Shown: in pieces, positions 13,070-31,495 of the stretch
How the letters are laid out: the number at the start of each line of letters is the position of its first letter
How positions within the stretch are numbered: the first letter of the stretch is position 1
Assembly: GCA_016699385.1 (NCBI GenBank)
Contig: CP064974.1
Span: 131,242 to 195,241, forward strand
Direction: 5' to 3'
Source of the DNA: Candidatus Moraniibacteriota bacterium
Lineage (GTDB): Bacteria; Patescibacteriota; Minisyncoccia; Moranbacterales; UBA1568
Length of the DNA stretch: 64,000 nt
The notes under the pieces: generated by a model
What the model was told of the DNA's origin: nothing
The model's database searches: none
The model's input: only the letters and a program-made list of their open reading frames with translations
Position numbers and translations under genes: made by a program

Positions 13070-15664
13070 ATGAGTTTTGAGGATAGAATGCAATCTCGCA
13101 AAGATATTTCTCAAGATGCTATACTAAATGACATATATTTTGTTGATTTTTCTATGGATCATACGGCGTCTTCTCCGACTGAAGAATTATTTCCGGGACT
13201 TTCATCGCATGAAGTGAAGGATCGTTCGGAGCGTTATGGCGAGAACGTGCTTGCACCTCGTCGACGTATCAATCCTGTCGTTTCTTTCCTTAAAGAATTC
13301 ACAAGTCCACTGTTGATTATCTTGCTTGCGGTTTCTTTTGTTTCTTTCTTCTTTCTCGGACAGCGGACAAACGCCACCATTATTTTTGCCATGGTGCTTA
13401 TCTCTGCTGTGGTTGATTTTGCTAATACGTTTCGATCGGAGCGCGCGGTGGAGCGACTTGCTGAGCGAGTGAAGACACTGTCTCGAGTTCGTCGCAACGG
13501 CAAGGAAAAAGAAATAGACGCACGCAGTCTCGTGCCGGATGATATTGTCCTTCTCTCAGCGGGGAGTCTCATCCCAGCTGATGCGGAAGTGCTTGAGGCG
13601 CGAGATTTCTTCGTCAATCAGTCGGCATTTACCGGTGAGTCATTCCCGACAGAGAAGCGACCGCTCGGGCAAAGAAGTCCTGCTGATCGCATCACCGAGC
13701 GAGATGATCGGGTATTCATGGGGACAAGTGTTGTTTCTGGATTCGCAACTGTGCGAATCCTGCTGATAGGTAAGGAGACTGAATATGGGAAGATTGCTTC
13801 GCATGTTTCCGAAGAAAAGGGTGAGACGGATTTCGAGCGGAATATTCGCGGGTTTAGTCTCTTTGTCATGCGACTCAATTTCGTTTTGGTAGGGCTGGTG
13901 CTTTTGGTGAATACACTTCTTGGACGTGACTTTGTTGAATCACTCACCTTTTCTATTGCAATTGCTATCGGTCTTACGCCTGAGCTTTTGCCGGTGATGC
14001 TCTCAGTGTCGCTTGCTCGCGGTTCAGTACGCATGGCGAAGAAGCATGCCATTGTGAAAAACTTGTCGTCGATTCAAAACTTTGGCAGTATGACGGTGCT
14101 TTGTACTGACAAGACGGGCACTCTCACACAAGACAAAATCACACTTATCAAACATATCGACGGCGATGGACGCGACTCGGAAGAAGTCTTCCTCTACTCA
14201 TATCTCAACAGCGCCTATCAAACGGGTGTCAAAAATCCACTTGATCGGGCTATTGTGGAACACGGGAAGCCGGATATTTCTGCGTATGAAAAAGTGGATG
14301 AAGTGCCGTTTGATTTTGTACGTCGGCGCGAGTCTTTGGTTGTCGCAAAGCGTGGCGAAAAGATATTGACTACCAAGGGTGCGCCGGAACATGTGTTGCC
14401 GATTGTGTCTTCCATTCGCATTGCCGGGAAGAATATTCCCATGGATGCGGTGCGCCGGACGTTGCTCCAGCAATCAGCGGAGACGTTGTTTGGGGAAGGG
14501 TTCCGTGTGTTGGCAATTGCGACCAAGACGCTCGACGCCGATGACTATACCTACAATGCTGCGGATGAGTCGGATATGACTTTTGTCGGGTTTGCCGCAT
14601 TTCTTGATCCTCCGAAGAAAGATGCGATGCAGACGATTCAAGAGCTTTCTGATCTCGGTGTCTCGGTGAAGATTCTCACGGGGGATAGCGATACACTCAC
14701 GCGGAAGATTTGCGCGGACATTGGTATACCGGTCTTGGGGACGGTTCTTGGAAAAGATATCGATCGACTTTCTGCGTCGGAAGTGGCAATACTCGCTCTC
14801 AAGACAACTATTTTTGCTCGTGTGACACCGGCGGAGAAAGAGCGCATCATCCAATCGCTTCGTACGCTTCCCAACACCGTTGTTGGCTATATGGGTGATG
14901 GTATCAATGATGTGACCGCGCTTCACGCGGCAGATATCGGCATCTCGGTCGAGAACGCCGTGCCCGTCGCCAAAGACGCGGCAAATATCATTCTCCTTGA
15001 GAAGAGTTTCTCGGTCCTCAAGGATGGTATCGAAGAGGGACGGAAGACGTTTCAAAACACGCTCAAATATATCCGCATGTGGATTTCGTCGAATTTCGGA
15101 AACATGTTTTCGATGATGGGCGCTTCGGCGGTTCTCCCATTTCTCCCGATGAGTCCTCAGCAGATTCTCCTCAACAACTTCCTCTACGATTCGTCGCAGG
15201 TGGGGCTTCCGATGGATCATGTCGACAAGGAATCTATCACGCGCCCGGCGCGATGGAACTTCCGCGGTATTCGTCGATTCATGATTATCTTTGGAACGAT
15301 TAGCTCGGTCTTTGATTTCCTGACATTTGGTGCGCTCTTCTTATTCTTTGGCCTGAGTGAAGGTGCTTTCCAGACTGGCTGGTTTCTGGAATCCTTGGCG
15401 ACGCAAATTCTCGTCATCTTCATCGTCCGAACGCGGCACATACCGTTCTTCCGCAGTATCCCAGGTGGATTTCTTATTGCCAATACACTGCTTGTTCTTG
15501 CTGTCGGCTGGATCATTGCGCTCTCGCCATTTGGGCGTATCTTTGGTTTCGAGCTCCTACCGTTTCCTGTTTTCCTCACCATATTCACCATCACCATTGC
15601 CTACCTCGCCACAGTCGAAATCGCCAAGCGAATCTTCGAGAAGACCGTGCAATTGGAGGGGTAA
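13070..15664 (+). CDS. mgtA: Mg2+-transporting P-type ATPase (MgtA-type)
   Basis: Motifs CTDKTGTLTQDKI (phosphorylation site, MgtA-type context), TGDS, MGDGINDVTALHAADIGISV, and 10 TM segments. Start chosen at the ATG preceded by agagga. The ORF-track start at 12980 lies inside the palindrome. Confidence 0.85.
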   Translation: MSFEDRMQSRKDISQDAILNDIYFVDFSMDHTASSPTEELFPGLSSHEVKDRSERYGENVLAPRRRINPVVSFLKEFTSPLLIILLAVSFVSFFFLGQRTNATIIFAMVLISAVVDFANTFRSERAVERLAERVKTLSRVRRNGKEKEIDARSLVPDDIVLLSAGSLIPADAEVLEARDFFVNQSAFTGESFPTEKRPLGQRSPADRITERDDRVFMGTSVVSGFATVRILLIGKETEYGKIASHVSEEKGETDFERNIRGFSLFVMRLNFVLVGLVLLVNTLLGRDFVESLTFSIAIAIGLTPELLPVMLSVSLARGSVRMAKKHAIVKNLSSIQNFGSMTVLCTDKTGTLTQDKITLIKHIDGDGRDSEEVFLYSYLNSAYQTGVKNPLDRAIVEHGKPDISAYEKVDEVPFDFVRRRESLVVAKRGEKILTTKGAPEHVLPIVSSIRIAGKNIPMDAVRRTLLQQSAETLFGEGFRVLAIATKTLDADDYTYNAADESDMTFVGFAAFLDPPKKDAMQTIQELSDLGVSVKILTGDSDTLTRKICADIGIPVLGTVLGKDIDRLSASEVAILALKTTIFARVTPAEKERIIQSLRTLPNTVVGYMGDGINDVTALHAADIGISVENAVPVAKDAANIILLEKSFSVLKDGIEEGRKTFQNTLKYIRMWISSNFGNMFSMMGASAVLPFLPMSPQQILLNNFLYDSSQVGLPMDHVDKESITRPARWNFRGIRRFMIIFGTISSVFDFLTFGALFLFFGLSEGAFQTGWFLESLATQILVIFIVRTRHIPFFRSIPGGFLIANTLLVLAVGWIIALSPFGRIFGFELLPFPVFLTIFTITIAYLATVEIAKRIFEKTVQLEG

Positions 15665-15772
15665 CTTGAATGTATGGCAGCGTAGGAAAGAATATGGAAA
15701 GAGTCTCAAAGGGGCGCGTGTGTGGAGCGCGCCTTTGCTTTTTTGGGAGAAACTTTCTACACTGTGTGGACT

Positions 15773-16735
15773 ATGGAGAAGAGTTTTTGGCAACAACTTC
15801 CGAAGCCGTTCATGGTGCTCGCGCCGATGGCAGGGGTGACAGATACGGTATTTCGGCAAATCATTGCACGGCGAGCGAAGCCCGATGTTTTTTGGACGGA
15901 GTTTGTTTCGTGTGACGGACTCTGCAGTCGCGGTCGGGAGGCTTTGCTTCGTGATTTTCTCTTTATCGAAGATGAGCGACCGATTGTGGCGCAAGTATTT
16001 GGCGCGACACCGAAAAACTTCTATGAAACAGCGCGACTTGTTGTTTCACTTGGGTTTGATGGGATTGATATCAATATGGGCTGTCCCGATCGTGCAGTGC
16101 TTGGACAGGGTGCGGGTGCGGCGCTCATTCGGACGCCGGGACTCGCGCGAGATATCATCGCGGCGACGAAAGAGGGAATTGCGTCGGCAGGGTCGACTAT
16201 CCCGCTCTCGGTGAAGACACGGACAGGATTTGACTCCGATGAAATCGATACATGGATACCGATGCTTCTTGATGCGAAACTCGATGCACTCACGATTCAC
16301 GCGCGGACGAAGAAAGAAATGTCGGACGTGCCGGCGCGCTGGAGTGATGTGGCGCGCGTCGTTGAAATGGCTCGAGGAACCGAGACGCTCATTATCGGGA
16401 ATGGCGATGTGCGCGACCTCGCAGACGCAAGACAGAAAGCGAGCGAGACGGGGGCGGACGGCGTGATGCTGGGGCGCGCGATATTTGGAAATCCGTGGCT
16501 CTTTGATGTGACAGGGAAAATTCCGACAGTGGAAGAAAGGCTGTTGGCGCTCGTCGAGCACACGCACCTCTACGAAACGACGTGGGGAACGACGAAGAGT
16601 TTTGATCTCATGAAGAAACACTACAAAGCCTATGTCAATGGATTTCCCAATGCCTCTGATCTTCGTTCGCGGCTCATGCTATGCAAGAATTCAAAGGAAG
16701 TGGAAGAAATCGTGACAAATTTTTTATGCGTATGA
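15773..16735 (+). CDS. tRNA-dihydrouridine synthase (Dus family)
   Basis: MVLAPMAGVTDTVFRQI and GIDINMGCP motifs of the Dus TIM-barrel flavoenzymes. An alternative upstream start is at 15722. Confidence 0.8.
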   Translation: MEKSFWQQLPKPFMVLAPMAGVTDTVFRQIIARRAKPDVFWTEFVSCDGLCSRGREALLRDFLFIEDERPIVAQVFGATPKNFYETARLVVSLGFDGIDINMGCPDRAVLGQGAGAALIRTPGLARDIIAATKEGIASAGSTIPLSVKTRTGFDSDEIDTWIPMLLDAKLDALTIHARTKKEMSDVPARWSDVARVVEMARGTETLIIGNGDVRDLADARQKASETGADGVMLGRAIFGNPWLFDVTGKIPTVEERLLALVEHTHLYETTWGTTKSFDLMKKHYKAYVNGFPNASDLRSRLMLCKNSKEVEEIVTNFLCV

Positions 16736-16986
16736 CTCAAACTTTTGCCAATCGCGTGCGTGCGGTTGTGTCACAGATTCCAAAAGGGAAGACGATGACG
16801 TACAAAGAAGTGGCGGAGCGAGCGGGGAGTCCGCGCGCGTTTCGCGCGGTCGGCAACATTCTCAACAAGAACTTCGACCCGAATATTCCGTGCCACCGCG
16901 TCGTCCGAAGCGACGGCACGACCGGCGGCTACAATCGCGGCGCGGAGAGGAAGCTGGAGCTACTTCAAGAGGAAAGAAACTTATGA
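16726..16986 (+). CDS. Methylated-DNA-protein-cysteine methyltransferase, DNA-binding/catalytic C-terminal domain only (Ogt/MGMT family)
   Basis: IPCHRVV active-site motif with the conserved Cys, plus helix-turn-helix-like [22 protein letters not shown]. About 86 aa with no N-terminal domain. The start overlaps the end of dus. Confidence 0.7.
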   Translation: MRMTQTFANRVRAVVSQIPKGKTMTYKEVAERAGSPRAFRAVGNILNKNFDPNIPCHRVVRSDGTTGGYNRGAERKLELLQEERNL

Positions 16987-17056
16987 GTTTTTTTGCAGGA
17001 GTTATCTTATTGTGATAGTCTCTTACTGGTAGCGTACCTTTCAAAGCGAGGTTTCC

Positions 17057-17374
17057 ATGGATATCAATGGTGGCGGTTTATGTGAACTTGATGCGGTCTC
17101 CCTGTATAATCTTGGGAGAATTATCGGTGAGATATCAATGGAGAGGCCAGATATTACGCATCGCATACTCGTTGGGATTCGCGACGGTATGGTAGATGCA
17201 GATTCTTTCTCCGGGTATGGTTTTGGGGAATTGTTGGAGGCGCTGGAGCGACACTGGTTTTCCCATGTCGCGAATCAAGATATTCCTCCTCCAATACAGT
17301 TTGTTAGATCAAACACTCTTTCTGGTTCGGGAAGGCTTCAGTTTCAGATAGTTTTAAGACCCCGTTCCATTTGA
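17057..17374 (+). CDS. Hypothetical protein
   Basis: ORF of 105 aa with no recognisable motifs. It lies inside the duplicated/inserted segment. Confidence 0.3.
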   Translation: MDINGGGLCELDAVSLYNLGRIIGEISMERPDITHRILVGIRDGMVDADSFSGYGFGELLEALERHWFSHVANQDIPPPIQFVRSNTLSGSGRLQFQIVLRPRSI

Positions 17375-17648
17375 GAACGGTTGCTAGAACCCATATCGTC
17401 GAACAATTACGACGTGCCAGTAAGCGAATGTCTGTACAGGTACGCGATGGAGCATGCCGGGAAGCCGTTTGATTCGGATACGCCGCGGGTTACGGAGAGG
17501 GAAAGAGCAATCTTGAATGAGGGTCGCTTGCGGCAGGAGAATGAGGATAGAGGTAAAGAAGGATAAAAAAATCCGGAGCATCGCTCCGAGAATACAATTG
17601 CGCTACACTGTTCATTCAGTTGTAGTGCGTTTTTTATTGCGTTTTCGT

Positions 17649-18065
17649 ATGGTAAAGAAGAAGGAAGTGCCGTTTGCGTCGCAGGATTGGATTATGGTGA
17701 AGGGGGCGCGGACACGCAATTTGAAGAATATCACCGTGTCGATTCCTCGGGGGAAAATGACGGTGTTTACGGGGCTTTCCGAGAGTGGGAAGTCTTCTTT
17801 GGCGTTCGATACGATATTTGCCAATCGCGTGCGTGCGGTTGTGTCACAGATTCCAAAAGGGAAGACGATGACGTACAAAGAAGTGGCGGAGCGAGCGGGG
17901 AGTCCGCGCGCGTTTCGCGCGGTCGGCAACATTCTCAACAAGAACTTCGACCCGAATATTCCGTGCCACCGCGTCGTCCGAAGCGACGGCACGACTGGTG
18001 GCTACAATCGCGGCGCAAAGAGGAAACGAGAGATTTTGCAGGAGGAAGGAGTTTTGGATGATTGA
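17649..18065 (+). CDS. Chimeric ORF: diverged copy of the UvrA N-terminus (~48 aa including the P-loop) fused in frame to a second, near-identical copy of the MGMT domain
   Basis: [58 protein letters not shown] aligns with the start of the UvrA protein (CDS 18889-21453). The remainder, NRVRAVVSQ...[19 protein letters not shown], matches 16742-16975 almost base-for-base. Confidence 0.5.
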
Positions 18066-18119
18066 GAAGATGGGAATACAAAAAGAGAGCTGGTCAGGCT
18101 CTCCAAAGTTTCATGACCT

Positions 18120-18644
18120 TTATTTTCTGTTAAAGTTCGGCAAATTCAGCCACCATCTGGCGCCGGAATTTGGGATATACCCAAGACCCCACCAACCGTA
18201 GCCATCTTCACTGGGAACTGCTGGAACAAGCATGCCGATTTTACATGTAAATTGCCCGCTGGCCTCTTTGGGAATGCTTCCATCGGAGCGCAATTGGGAG
18301 ATATCCGTATTTGTCTCTGCTGCTGCGCATCGAACACACAGAAGTCTTGCTCGGAATGTCTGCCAATCTCTCCAAAGCTTCACACCGTGAGCTTGGCATT
18401 TACAGCAGGCGTAGCTCGATGGAACTGCGCCACCCAAATATTGCCCGCCTGCTCCGGTTGGAAAATAGGCAATCTGCTTCGCAATTTCCAGTGCTATCCT
18501 CGGGTTTCTTTCCCATGGAAATATTGCTGACAATCCCTTTCCCCGAGATTGTCTCCATTGACCATGGAGAACGGTATACTCAGCTGTCCCTGGTTTATAT
18601 TTACGTACTCCGGAAGTTTTCACGGGCATCTTCTTTTTCCTCAA
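18120..18644 (-). CDS. Hypothetical Cys-rich protein (possible zinc-ribbon: CCKC...CVRC)
   Basis: ORF of 174 aa with Cys motifs YACCKCQAHG and LLCVRC and Trp/Gly-rich segments. No family recognised. Confidence 0.4.
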   Translation of the reverse strand: MRKKKMPVKTSGVRKYKPGTAEYTVLHGQWRQSRGKGLSAIFPWERNPRIALEIAKQIAYFPTGAGGQYLGGAVPSSYACCKCQAHGVKLWRDWQTFRARLLCVRCAAAETNTDISQLRSDGSIPKEASGQFTCKIGMLVPAVPSEDGYGWWGLGYIPNSGARWWLNLPNFNRK

Positions 18645-18853
18645 TTGTGACTAAAAGATCAACCCTTCCTTGTTAAAAAACTTTCCTCAAAAATCATGTT
18701 AATAGTGGTATGTTGAGCAAAATTTGTCAATAGAATTCACCGCGGATAATAAAGAATATAATTGTCAGAAATCCCAGCTCTCGATGATGGTTTCGGAGGC
18801 TCTCTTCTGTGCTCCGGATAATACTAGGCTACGTTGATTTTCTGTTTGTTTCA

Positions 18854-18880
18854 CGCTACACTGTTCATTCAGCTGTAGCG
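18854..18880. promoter_or_regulatory. Inverted repeat CGCTACA-N13-TGTAGCG overlapping the uvrA promoter/5' leader (candidate operator)
   Basis: Perfect 7-bp arms end 9 nt before the uvrA start codon. A one-mismatch copy (17611-17637) sits upstream of the chimeric uvrA'-MGMT ORF. Confidence 0.35.
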
Positions 18881-18888
18881 TATTTTTT

Positions 18889-21453
18889 ATGCCGAAAAAG
18901 GCGAAAGTCGATGATCACGTGCCTCAGAATTGGATTGTGGTGAAGGGGGCGCGGACGCACAATTTGAAGAATATCACCGTGTCGATTCCTCGGGGGAAGA
19001 TGACGGCGTTTACCGGACTCTCGGGGTCGGGGAAGTCTTCGCTTGCATTTGATACCATATTCGCCGAGGGACAGCGGCGGTATGTCGAGTCGCTTTCGGC
19101 GTATGCGCGGCAATTTTTGAATCAAATGCAGAAGCCGGATGTGGATGAAATAGAAGGGCTTTCGCCGGCGATTTCTATCGATCAGAAATCGCGCTCGTCC
19201 AATCCACGTTCGACAGTCGCGACGATTACCGAAATATACGATTACCTCCGCGTGCTCTATGCGCGTATTGGGCGACCGCATTGTCTCACATGCGGGCGGG
19301 AGATTTCCAAACTTTCGACAGATGAGATGATTGGTTTTATTTCGGAGCAGGCATCGAAAGCAAAAGCAAAAGAGTCGCTTCGAATTTTAGCGCCGATTGT
19401 GCGCGGACGAAAGGGTGAATACTATCAATTGCTCTATGACTATCTCGGAAAGGGATTTTCCGAGGCGCGCATTGATGGTGAGATGAAGAGCCTGCGTGAA
19501 CGCGTCGTACTCTCAAAACACAAAGCGCATGATATCGATATGCTGGTCGACACGATACCGGTATCGGAACTCTCAAGTAAAATGTGGAGCGATGATGCCG
19601 GAATGCGTTTGCGAGAGGCAGTGGAGAGATCGCTCGAGGAATCAGAGGGGCTTGTCAAAATCGTGATTGGTGAAGAAGAGAAATTGCTTTCGTCGAAATA
19701 CTCGTGTCCGTATGATGGTTTTTCCTATCCGGAAGTCGAGCCGAGATTGTTCTCGTTTAACTCGCCCTATGGTGCGTGTCCGGAATGTAATGGTCTTGGC
19801 ACGAAGCACTTCTTCGGAAGTGAACCGTGTCCTCTGTGTGAAGGGAGTCGCTTGCGCGAGGAGGCACTTCAGGTAAAGGTGTGTGGCAGAAACATCGTGG
19901 AGTTCTCCGGCATGGTAATTGGCGAAGCGAAGGCGTTCCTCGATACGGCGGCGCTCGATGATCGAGAGCGCGCTATCGCTTCAGTTGTTCTCAAGGAAAT
20001 CGGCAATCGCCTGACATTTCTCCTCGATGTGGGACTTGATTATCTCTCGCTTGACCGTCGTGCCAATACGCTCTCGGGCGGGGAGTCGCAACGCATTCGT
20101 CTTGCTTCACAACTGGGCAGTCAATTGGTGGGCGCACTCTATGTCTTGGATGAACCGACCATCGGGCTTCATCCGCGGGACAATGACCGTCTTATCAAGA
20201 CACTTATCGAGCTTCGCAACCTCGGCAATACGATTATCGTTGTCGAACATGATGAAGATACAATTTTTGCATCCGACTATATCGTGGATATTGGACCGAA
20301 AGCAGGTGTGCACGGTGGAGAAGTAATCGTATCCGGATTTCTCGAAGAGCTTCTCACTGCAAAGAAAAACGAATCGAAATCGCTCACGCTCTCCTATTTA
20401 CGCGGTGAATCCGTGATACCGATTCCGGAACGGCGACGAATGAAGGAGAAAGGCTCGATAAAAATCCGCGGAGGGAAGGTGTTTAATATTGTGAATATGG
20501 ATGCGGAGATTCCGCTCGGTCGCATCGTTGCGATCACGGGCGTGTCGGGTTCGGGCAAATCGTCATTTCTCTATGAAATTTTGCACAAGAATCTCCGAGC
20601 GCGACTTGATCGTCGATATCGGAGTCCAAAGACAGTGAACTGCGTCTCGTTTACAGGGACAGAATATCTCGCGCGTGCTGTATTGATCGACCAGTCGCCA
20701 ATCGGACGGACGCCTCGCTCGAATCCCGCAACCTATACCGGTATGTGGACGCATATTCGCGACATGTTTGCGATGACATCCGAGGCGCGCGTGCGGGGCT
20801 GGCGCTCGGGGCGATTCTCATTCAATGTGAAGGGCGGACGCTGTGAGACCTGTGAGGGAAATGGACAGATTGCCGTCGAGATGCACTTCTTGCCGACGGT
20901 GTATGTGCCGTGCGATGTGTGCGGAGGAAAGCGATTTACCAAAGAGACACTCGAAGTCACCTACAAACACAAGAATATTTACGAAATCCTCAAGATGACT
21001 GTCGAGGAAGCACATCCATTTTTCAAAGACATTCCTGCGATTGCCGATCGGTTGCAGACGCTCCTTGATGTGGGGCTTGGCTATCTCGAACTCGGTCAGT
21101 CGGCGACGACGCTCTCGGGCGGTGAAGCTCAGCGTATCAAAATTGCGAGCGAACTCTATCGCCCCAATCTCCAACGAACAATGTACCTCCTCGATGAGCC
21201 GACCGTCGGACTCCATTATGAAGATGTTCGAAAGCTCATCGAAATCCTCGATCGCCTCGTTGAAAAGGGAAATACTGTTGTCACTATCGAGCACAATATG
21301 GATATTTTGAAGAGCGCCGACTATATCCTCGACATCGGTCCCGAAGGCGGCGCGGGAGGTGGTCGCCTTGTCGCCAAAGGAACGCCCGAACAAGTTGCCA
21401 ACAACCCAAAGTCGCATACGGGAGTGTATTTGAAACGAGTGTTGAAGGATTGA
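18889..21453 (+). CDS. uvrA: Excinuclease ABC subunit A (UvrA), compact 854-aa form
   Basis: Two ABC ATPase modules ([28 protein letters not shown]; ITGVSGSGKSSFL), signature motifs LSGGESQRIRLA and LSGGEAQRIKIA, and zinc-finger cysteines. Confidence 0.9.
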   Translation: MPKKAKVDDHVPQNWIVVKGARTHNLKNITVSIPRGKMTAFTGLSGSGKSSLAFDTIFAEGQRRYVESLSAYARQFLNQMQKPDVDEIEGLSPAISIDQKSRSSNPRSTVATITEIYDYLRVLYARIGRPHCLTCGREISKLSTDEMIGFISEQASKAKAKESLRILAPIVRGRKGEYYQLLYDYLGKGFSEARIDGEMKSLRERVVLSKHKAHDIDMLVDTIPVSELSSKMWSDDAGMRLREAVERSLEESEGLVKIVIGEEEKLLSSKYSCPYDGFSYPEVEPRLFSFNSPYGACPECNGLGTKHFFGSEPCPLCEGSRLREEALQVKVCGRNIVEFSGMVIGEAKAFLDTAALDDRERAIASVVLKEIGNRLTFLLDVGLDYLSLDRRANTLSGGESQRIRLASQLGSQLVGALYVLDEPTIGLHPRDNDRLIKTLIELRNLGNTIIVVEHDEDTIFASDYIVDIGPKAGVHGGEVIVSGFLEELLTAKKNESKSLTLSYLRGESVIPIPERRRMKEKGSIKIRGGKVFNIVNMDAEIPLGRIVAITGVSGSGKSSFLYEILHKNLRARLDRRYRSPKTVNCVSFTGTEYLARAVLIDQSPIGRTPRSNPATYTGMWTHIRDMFAMTSEARVRGWRSGRFSFNVKGGRCETCEGNGQIAVEMHFLPTVYVPCDVCGGKRFTKETLEVTYKHKNIYEILKMTVEEAHPFFKDIPAIADRLQTLLDVGLGYLELGQSATTLSGGEAQRIKIASELYRPNLQRTMYLLDEPTVGLHYEDVRKLIEILDRLVEKGNTVVTIEHNMDILKSADYILDIGPEGGAGGGRLVAKGTPEQVANNPKSHTGVYLKRVLKD

Positions 21454-30542: not shown

Positions 30543-31019
30543 GTGTCTTTTATGAGGGGTGTAATGGATTTTGTGTCGTTATCAAGGAGAAGACAAAAGG
30601 GTTTCACTTTACTTGAAATTCTCTTGGTCGTCGCAGCAATTGGTATTTTGGCAGGTATCGTTATTCTCGCGATAAATCCGTCGAAGCAGCTTGGTGATAC
30701 GCGAAACGCTCAGCGACGTTCTGACGTGAATACGATTCTTAATGCAGTGTATCAATATGCGATTGATAATAATGGCACTTTGCCGGCATCTATAACGACA
30801 ACGGCAACGGGTGTCTGCAAGACTGGAGGAACGTGTACGAGTCTTATTGATTTGGGTGTCCTTACCATAAACGAGAAGTACCTTGTTTCTCTACCGTATG
30901 ATCCGACTGGATCGACAGCAAATAGCACGGGGTACAATATTGCCAAATCTGCCAATGGACGAGTGACAGTGTCAGCGCCAAGTGCAGAGCAGAGCGCAAC
31001 TATCAGTGTCACGCGATAA
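30543..31019 (+). CDS. Type IV major pilin (PilA-like), paralogue 1
   Basis: [44 protein letters not shown] is a canonical class III signal plus alpha1-N helix (Glu at +5). The C-terminus [21 protein letters not shown] is shared with paralogue 2. The true start may be the internal ATG at 30564. Confidence 0.8.
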
Positions 31020-31036
31020 ATATAAAATATACATGT

Positions 31037-31495
31037 ATGAAGAATAAAAAAGCATTCACGCTTATAGAAATCTTGCTAGTTGTTGCGGCAATCGCTATTT
31101 TGGCAGGTATCGTTATTCTTGCGATAAATCCGTCGAAGCAGCTTGGTGATACGCGAAACGCGGAGCGTCATGCGGATGTGACAACGATACTCAACGCGGT
31201 CTATCAGTACTCGCTGGATAATAATGGAGCTTTGCCAACTATTCCGTTGAATTCGACTTGTGACAATACTGCTGCTTATCAGATATGCAAAGCGGGTGCA
31301 ACGGGAACATGTTCGGCTGGTGTTGATATCTCCGTCATTACAACCAATCAGAAGTATGTGACGAGCATTCCTCTCGATCCATCTGTTTCGTCAACAGATG
31401 GAACGGGATATTACATTGTGCGGAGTTCGAATAATCGAGTGACGGTCTGTGCGCCAAGCGCCGAGCAAGGAGCGACTATTAGTGTGACGCGGTAG
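31037..31495 (+). CDS. Type IV major pilin (PilA-like), paralogue 2
   Basis: [48 protein letters not shown]... The N-terminus (~55 aa) and C-terminus (~25 aa) are nearly identical to paralogue 1; the centre has diverged. Confidence 0.85.
   Translation: MKNKKAFTLIEILLVVAAIAILAGIVILAINPSKQLGDTRNAERHADVTTILNAVYQYSLDNNGALPTIPLNSTCDNTAAYQICKAGATGTCSAGVDISVITTNQKYVTSIPLDPSVSSTDGTGYYIVRSSNNRVTVCAPSAEQGATISVTR

Follow-up and report, generated by a model that had tools for sequence, protein, structure and literature searches.

Recombination between diverged lineages as the probable source of a chimeric uvrA-5'::MGMT gene in a Candidatus Moraniibacteriota genome

Introduction

In an Escherichia coli study of homology-facilitated illegitimate recombination (HFIR), the majority of the events selected had duplicated 109-950 bp at the homologous locus, a circular molecule having recombined through a single crossover (PMC3240628). 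Alkyltransferase-like (ATL) proteins have both UvrA and UvrC as binding partners, and pass bulky O6-alkylguanines on to excision repair (PMC10779285). Both are compared here with a locus of a Candidatus Moraniibacteriota bacterium in which the leader and the first codons of uvrA are fused in frame to a second copy of an MGMT gene. The locus is found in a stretch of 64,000 nucleotides (the window) from a metagenome-assembled genome (MAG), of which the region 15600-19400 was read closely. The chimeric gene is probably a strain-specific, recent scar, left when two diverged lineages of Moraniibacteriota that carry different MGMT-uvrA cassettes recombined.

Patescibacteria, or Candidate Phyla Radiation (CPR) bacteria, are uncultured, and most of what is said about their ability to take up and recombine DNA is inferred. 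The locus is of modest value as a cleanly resolved case of natural recombination between lineages of this group about 15-20% apart, involving one homologous and one microhomology join.

Results

A mosaic of two gene orders

Relatives of the window feature one of two gene orders. In B-type loci, found in seven independent assemblies, an ATPase gene is followed by dus, MGMT (86 aa), a Cys-rich open reading frame (ORF) of 169 aa on the minus strand, and uvrA (854 aa), and no duplication is present. In A-type loci (L011-L014) dus and MGMT (84 aa) are followed by an ORF of 169 aa on the plus strand (orf169) and by uvrA (853 aa). The window joins the two. BLAST comparison with the B-type locus L001 gives 97.1% identity for 15601-16958 and 97.9% for 17817-19400, both MGMT genes of the window falling on the single MGMT of L001; 16987-17600 has no match in L001, the only B-type counterpart of the insert being its uvrA homology, at 76%, and the net gain of the window over L001 amounts to 1073 nt. 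The A-type loci L011-L014 are colinear with 15734-17822, and the colinearity ends exactly at the fusion junction. Segment by segment, the affinity of the window is B-type to 16923, A-type from about 16924-16959 through 17822, and B-type from 17817 onwards. The features concerned are the following.

15722-16735, plus strand: dus (tRNA dihydrouridine synthase; Pfam PF01207, 1.2e-60), resident B-type backbone
16732-16986, plus strand: MGMT copy A, 84 aa (P0009, QQR77639.1; PF01035, 102 bits)
16744-16923, plus strand: MGMT core direct repeat, copy 1, opening with TTTGCC (16744-16749); 99.4% to L001
16924-17822, plus strand: candidate imported A-type segment (MGMT 3' end, orf169, uvrA leader, uvrA codons 1-58), its left limit between 16924 and 16959
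17649-18065, plus strand: chimeric uvrA-5'::MGMT ORF, 138 aa, UvrA residues 1-58 followed by MGMT to its own C-terminus
17772-17795, plus strand: degenerate Walker A motif GLSESGKS, with G45E at 17781-17783
17817-17822, plus strand: illegitimate junction TTTGCC, 6 bp, common to A-type uvrA codons 57-58 and MGMT codons 5-6
17817-17996, plus strand: MGMT core direct repeat, copy 2, recipient type, including PCHRV (Cys106 codon at 17964-17966)
18889-21453, plus strand: intact resident uvrA, 854 aa, 98.5% to L001, with the complete UvrA domain set

The MGMT gene recurs downstream, as had been claimed in an earlier note on this DNA made from the sequence alone. The repeat finder aligns 16744-16977 to 17817-18050 at 94% over 234 nt; pairwise alignment gives 100% identity over the initial 180 nt (16744-16923 and 17817-17996), beyond which the 3' ends diverge. 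The second repeat links the region upstream of the junction to the resident uvrA, both in the leader (17601-17637 and 18854-18890, 89% over 37 nt) and in the 5' coding part (17682-17822 and 18925-19065, 85% over 141 nt). Fragment and resident uvrA are 78% identical over all 212 aligned nt, and a 10-nt indel separates their leaders. Both repeats far exceed chance expectation. The window contains only one other long direct repeat (30595-30784 and 31047-31236, 79%), stemming from two tandem paralogues at 30543-31495, each encoding a small protein whose N-terminus has a hydrophobic segment like that of prepilins.

The in-frame chimeric ORF beside an intact uvrA, also described in the earlier note, is confirmed as a 138-aa frame at 17649-18065. 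UvrA sequence runs to residue 58; what follows is MGMT sequence, starting at residue 7 of copy A (84 aa), which corresponds to residue 9 of the 86-aa form of the relatives. The hexamer TTTGCC is found at 17817-17822 in the fusion and at 16744-16749 in MGMT copy A; since the resident uvrA reads TTCGCC (19060-19065), the microhomology is perfect only with respect to A-type uvrA. By our estimate, 6 bp of microhomology would be met at a random junction in well under 1% of cases. An illegitimate join at TTTGCC, as the note had it, is borne out in this form. The repeat of the uvrA leader and 5' codons likewise stands, but its stated length of about 48 codons has to be raised to 58 for the fragment, the resident gene having 59. 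Alignment of the repeat boundaries upheld the MGMT repeat, placed at 16744-16977 and 17817-18050, and revised the uvrA repeat, which extends over 17601-17822, at 78%.

Origin of the insert

Two short ORFs, orf105 (17057-17374) and orf61 (17381-17566), occupy the spacer between copy A and the uvrA fragment. Homologues of orf105 are 161-169 aa long, and the best of them (P0122, 169 aa, 85% identity) is located in L011-L014. The two ORFs align to the two halves of P0122 in one frame, and a TGA (17372-17374) is found where L011 has CGA; by this alignment, orf105 and orf61 are one gene, disrupted by a CGA>TGA nonsense codon. The earlier note had listed two ORFs between the repeats: 17057-17374 is hence half of a 169-aa gene, and the Cys-rich ORF at 18120-18644 is resident and no part of the rearranged DNA. 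Versions of orf169 of about 100 aa occur in several relatives (P0123, P0125, P0130), so that truncation near the TGA site recurs; either the C-terminal third of the protein would be dispensable, or the gene is often pseudogenised. No relative of orf105 was detected in the GTDB species genomes, and a single distant locus (L015), with other gene order, in the JGI metagenome contigs.

A-type markers in the uvrA fragment include the 10-nt leader block, the start context ATG-(G/T)(T/C)A-AAG-AAG-AA and Val39, and, at the codon level, Ser46 AGY (TCG in B-type), Leu51 TTG (CTT in B-type) and TTTGCC (TTCGCC in B-type). Informative positions in codons 39-57 side with A-type in 15 cases and with B-type, here the resident uvrA, in 3. 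With the 58-aa N-terminus as query, the matches were all short partial UvrAs, none above 78% amino-acid identity, and none pointed to a donor.

Both MGMT cores are of the recipient type (99.4% to L001, 94.4% to L007, 85.5% to L011). Copy A changes affinity within the gene: its 5' part is of the recipient type, and its 3' end, from about 16924-16959, is of the donor (A) type, with the C-terminus ...LELLQEERNL. The same C-terminal allele is found in the MGMT of L007 (P0010), which also runs on into orf169. A second small mosaic patch was noticed at the locus. It coincides with the 3' end of copy B (17997-18065, 69 nt), which is 95.7% identical to the distant B-type locus L008 and 82.6% to L001, in between flanks that are 98-99% L001-like.

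The insert is restricted to the window. Of three strains that lie 2-3% from one another (the window, L004 and the L001 group), the window alone carries the insert, so that a single insertion is the more parsimonious account; the distant B-type L008 has no insert either. Its absence from strains 97-98% identical agrees with the suggestion, made in the earlier note, of a recent rearrangement, and also implies that the 22% divergence of the fragment cannot have arisen in place. The same note regarded the fragment as a diverged duplicate of the resident uvrA, a view which is contradicted by these close strains without the insert, as by the colinearity with the A-type locus and by the A-type indel and codons.

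A possible route for the proposed import

The recipient would have carried the B-type arrangement, dus-MGMT-CysORF(minus)-uvrA, and the donor, presumably an unsampled relative, the A-type arrangement dus-MGMT-orf169-uvrA, from which a fragment reaching from within MGMT to uvrA codon 58 would have been taken up. At the left end a homologous crossover inside MGMT would account for the switch of affinity between 16923 and 16959; at the right end an illegitimate join would have occurred at TTTGCC, to codon 5-6 of the recipient MGMT. About 0.9 kb of foreign DNA would thereby come to lie between two direct copies of the MGMT core, the net change being +1073 bp. Copy A would remain a normal MGMT, translationally coupled to dus, and copy B would be left in frame behind the donor uvrA leader and 58 codons. 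Two routes may be envisaged: HFIR, or the integration, through a single crossover, of a fragment that had closed into a circle at TTTGCC, the repeats being homogenised afterwards. One homologous exchange, one microhomology junction and an insert missing from close relatives are all found, as in import of the HFIR type; the deletion of recipient DNA seen in classic HFIR is not, as no recipient DNA is lost and 180-234 bp of MGMT are duplicated.

The chimeric protein

Residues 11-58 of the fusion align to solved UvrA structures, and residues 55-135 to the C-terminal domains of Ada and Ogt. The fusion passes the cut-offs of the O6-alkylguanine-DNA alkyltransferase family (PF01035, 103.6 bits against 27; TIGR00589, 79.5 against 46.4). 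The second MGMT copy is intact and is the same as copy A over the catalytic core; the acceptor-cysteine motif IPCHRVV is found in both copies and is invariant in the alignment of relatives, confirming the retention of PCHRV reported in the earlier note. Since the catalytic Cys is retained, the fusion is no ATL. Copy A and its orthologues (83-92 aa) align only to residues ~95-175 or so of Ada-C (1SFE), and make up a short single-domain subgroup; the N-terminal structural domain of Ogt, Ada-C and human MGMT is missing from all of them.

The UvrA-derived part amounts to about 6% of UvrA. The fusion covers profile positions 3-56 of 943, with 68 bits against a cut-off of 1147 (NF001503), and does not qualify as a UvrA. 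The matched part corresponds to a portion of nucleotide-binding domain (NBD) I, comprising strands, P-loop and the beginning of a helix. The piece is presumably part of one NBD core and no surface or interaction module, as we take it from the 2R6F structure, and given the structural knowledge of UvrA we assume that it is on its own incapable of binding ATP, DNA or UvrB. The Walker A motif (GxxGxGK[ST]) is not intact, GLSESGKS replacing the GLSGSGKS of the resident uvrA, a change that had been spotted in the earlier note. The G45E replacement is unique to the fragment, as the residue is Gly in the A-type and B-type uvrAs compared and in the UvrAs of the PDB; H23R (17715-17717) is unique as well, at a His invariant in every UvrA compared. 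The favoured reading is that the UvrA part would be unconstrained, and on this reading the piece would be a passenger, endowed with no functional module. The ratio of nonsynonymous to synonymous substitution rates (dN/dS) between fragment and resident uvrA was dropped as evidence on selection, because the two sequences diverged mostly as parts of separate, functional uvrA genes.

A translation product of 138 aa is plausible, in view of the imported -10-like element, the leader inverted repeat with its U-run and the native start codon. Copy B encodes a complete alkyltransferase domain, which would probably be expressed from the uvrA promoter and leader of the donor and carry a 58-residue tail without function. 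The extra MGMT may possibly be co-regulated with uvrA. The fusion product will probably decay, or disappear through deletion between the repeats.

The GenBank entry QQR78020.1 (P0001) covers only the last 102 aa of the chimeric ORF, starts at Met37 and is named as an ordinary methyltransferase, so that the UvrA-derived N-terminus is hidden in the public annotation. The accession number of this entry is out of series with respect to its neighbours QQR77639.1 and QQR77640.1.

Search for the fusion elsewhere

The fusion was sought in other genomes. Among 5.8 billion proteins searched, the source protein P0001 alone spans the UvrA and MGMT parts, all other hits being plain MGMTs of 83-112 aa. The top hits of an exhaustive search of 1.84 billion representatives do not include the fusion, and consist of double-length UvrAs and plain MGMTs only. 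A degenerate junction pattern had no match in the JGI metagenome contigs or in the GTDB species genomes. One candidate with a long aligned stretch, P0371, was discarded, its N-terminal similarity being spurious. By these searches, the fusion is unique to one genome; the check for the same fusion in related genomes, proposed in the earlier note, gave none.

The uvrA leader hairpin and the cassette slot

Other features of the locus, resident or apparently imported, are listed here.

17057-17566, plus strand: orf169 homologue split by an in-frame TGA into orf105 and orf61
17573-17589, minus strand: terminator-like hairpin CCGGAGC...GCTCCGA in the putatively imported intergenic region, also present in L011
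17593-17627, plus strand: candidate imported uvrA leader, with the -10-like TACAAT at 17593-17598, then the inverted repeat CGCTACACTGTTCATTCAGTTGTAGTG at 17601-17627
18120-18644, minus strand: Cys-rich ORF, 174 aa, resident; the region is 98.5% identical to L001 and outside the import
18854-18880, plus strand: resident uvrA leader, a perfect inverted repeat CGCTACA-N13-TGTAGCG, then TATTTTTTATG, identical in all B-type loci

On the resident side, dus is 96.5-98% identical to its relatives in L001 and L004. Its TGA overlaps the ATG of MGMT copy A, as ATGA.

Directly 5' of the uvrA start, an inverted repeat of 27 nt (CGCTACA-N13-TGTAGCG) is followed by TATTTTTTAT. The leader repeat is found at 18854-18890 and 17601-17637 in the window, at 9050-9086 in L001 and at 6545-6581 in L011. 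It is near-invariant between A-type and B-type loci, though the adjacent coding DNA differs by about 22%; the imported repeat carries two C>T changes with respect to all other copies. Within the window, the inverted repeat resides at the two uvrA leaders only. The hairpin of the resident leader RNA has a folding energy of -14.8 kcal/mol (z = -4.0), and precedes a U-run. In A-type loci a perfect TATAAT is found 2 nt upstream of the leader repeat, and the imported copy has TACAAT where L011 has TATAAT. The leader repeat could be an operator, a stabilising hairpin at the 5' end of the transcript, or an attenuator. An Rfam scan of 16600-19100 gave no family, and a scan for promoters and terminators gave counts that did not improve on those of shuffled sequence.

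The slot between MGMT and uvrA (16987-17600 and 18066-18853 in the window, compared to L001, L008 and L011) holds a minus-strand Cys-rich ORF about 170 aa long in B-type loci, and the plus-strand ORF of 169 aa in A-type loci. Neither ORF matches Pfam, NCBIfam or PADLOC. In L004, L005 and L006 the Cys-rich ORF lacks an in-frame stretch of 180 nt (18260-18439), the ORFs measuring 104-106 aa as opposed to 169-174 aa. A weak direct repeat (18251-18274 and 18440-18463, spacing 189) flanks this stretch. The pattern suggests that an internal unit of about 60 aa varies in copy number.

Discussion

The interpretation of the locus as a recent import from an A-type lineage faces several difficulties. The A-type sequences closest to the insert are only 84-87% identical to it, and no donor was found; over the whole fragment, substitution sites favour A-type by 24 to 14, a weaker signal than that of codons 39-57. 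The donor lineage is consequently inferred rather than observed, though the 24:14 split would fit a donor with the A-type gene order other than L011 itself. The junction is known from the MAG assembly alone. An AlphaFold model of the fusion, run with an alignment holding at most 4 MGMT rows, was uninformative (mean predicted local distance difference test, pLDDT, 63; predicted template modelling score, pTM, 0.43; P-loop region <50). Simple Campbell integration of a donor circle was rejected as the full explanation, both MGMT cores being identical and of recipient type. The circle model predicts one donor-type core, and so needs a donor sharing the core, later gene conversion or homogenisation, a sister-chromosome join or some other route.

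The best surviving alternative, although an unlikely one, is an artefact of assembly or library construction, by which a chimeric read or template switch created a false junction, retained by the assembler, in a sample containing both A-type and B-type strains. The MAG source of the sequence, the mosaic of two lineages at the locus and the presence of the insert on one contig only would all fit, and template switching in vitro likewise favours microhomology. The 6 bp shared at the junction are, however, far too little for a graph or overlap mis-join. The contig, at 1,111,322 nt, corresponds to a whole genome of the group, which would imply consistent multi-read support. A mixture of strains leaves the nonsense codon of orf169 and the two unique replacements of the fragment unexplained, and the window holds no further odd repeats.

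The window might also preserve an old intermediate of the ancestral A-to-B transition, the B-type order of the relatives being the outcome of repeated deletion between MGMT repeats. Direct repeats of 180-234 bp do delete easily, and would regenerate the B-type order precisely; the divergence of fragment and resident uvrA (22%) resembles, moreover, the divergence of A-type from B-type (23%). Yet the window falls inside a group of B-type strains that differ by 2-3%, and L008 lacks the insert as well, so that several independent losses would be needed. A 58-codon remnant drifting for long should show frameshifts or stops, but has only about 3 unique replacements, and the repeats are 100% identical. 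We regard this history as very improbable.

Just as little credence is given to a functional new gene, in which the UvrA N-terminus would tether an active MGMT to UvrA and nucleotide excision repair, or bring it under damage control. The reading frame is unbroken, uvrA's own start and the conserved leader hairpin are kept, the MGMT domain is complete, and ATL proteins do bind UvrA (PMC10779285). Against this, the fusion occurs in one genome only, the UvrA piece is part of one NBD core, the P-loop is broken by G45E and H23R affects an invariant residue, the neighbouring imported gene, orf169, is already a pseudogene, and the AlphaFold model predicts no confident N-terminal fold. Co-option of the chimeric ORF, whether as a second MGMT under the uvrA leader and operator or through docking of its N-terminus on the UvrA NBD, which would couple alkyl reversal to excision repair, is very doubtful on the same scale. 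Nothing in the evidence supports a selected repair-coupling role. The earlier note had left room for a new repair-coupling protein; a frame found in one genome, holding about 6% of UvrA and two unique changes at invariant residues, gives no ground for it.

Tandem duplication of the MGMT-to-uvrA interval of the genome itself, the uvrA copy then diverging in place, is hardly credible at all: a duplicated stretch beginning at MGMT codon 6 and ending at uvrA codon 58 would yield exactly the observed topology, and the MGMT cores are identical, but the two repeat units and the two spacers do not all stem from the same genome, the spacers being unrelated (plus-strand orf169 in one, the minus-strand Cys-rich ORF in the other) and the first of them an A-type gene, the indel and codon-family states of the fragment match A-type uvrA and not the resident gene, and strains 2-3% diverged lack the insert, yet the fragment is 22% diverged.

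Recombinational import remains the preferred explanation. The event looks like an ordinary kind of recombination, and its product does not look like a new repair protein. The fusion, as a one-off by-product, is of little consequence for repair biology. In these Moraniibacteriota the slot between MGMT and uvrA would be an exchangeable cassette site. A word of caution concerns annotation, as an in-frame chimeric ORF of a MAG may be the scar of a recombination event that GenBank presents as an ordinary gene, QQR78020.1 being a case in point.

Comparison with known systems

Short proteins annotated as MGMT family protein (PF01035/TIGR00589) are the closest described relatives of the MGMT part. Both copies share with them the full DNA_binding_1 domain and PCHRV, and copy A, as the orthologues of the relatives, is ATGA-coupled to dus. 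No homologue with the 58-residue UvrA extension of copy B was found among them. ATL proteins (E. coli YbaZ/ATL, S. pombe Atl1; PMC10779285) have the fold family in common with the fusion, and for this fold a functional connection to UvrA is documented. They differ in lacking the acceptor Cys (PWHRV) and in being bound to full-length UvrA in trans; the fusion features PCHRV, and a 58-residue piece of UvrA in cis.

Effector/immunity arrays of V. cholerae's type VI secretion system (T6SS) have been attributed to HFIR (PMC5361080). Such orphan gene-fragment arrays remain after module replacement, and the likeness lies in the exchange of cassettes between conserved flanks, which leaves truncated remnants of flank genes; locus and biology are different, and an array of remnants there contrasts with a single one here.

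The nearest parallel is found in HFIR and in the integration of circularised fragments, as described in Acinetobacter, S. pneumoniae, P. stutzeri and E. coli (PMC3240628), which likewise combine one homologous exchange with a microhomology join. Classic HFIR deletes recipient DNA, whereas here part of MGMT is duplicated, and the event is a natural one, read from the sequence of uncultured Patescibacteria. Two recipient-type copies of the repeat, as seen here, are not predicted by the simple circle model. In size, the MGMT repeat of 180-234 bp matches the duplications of 109-950 bp obtained in E. coli (PMC3240628).

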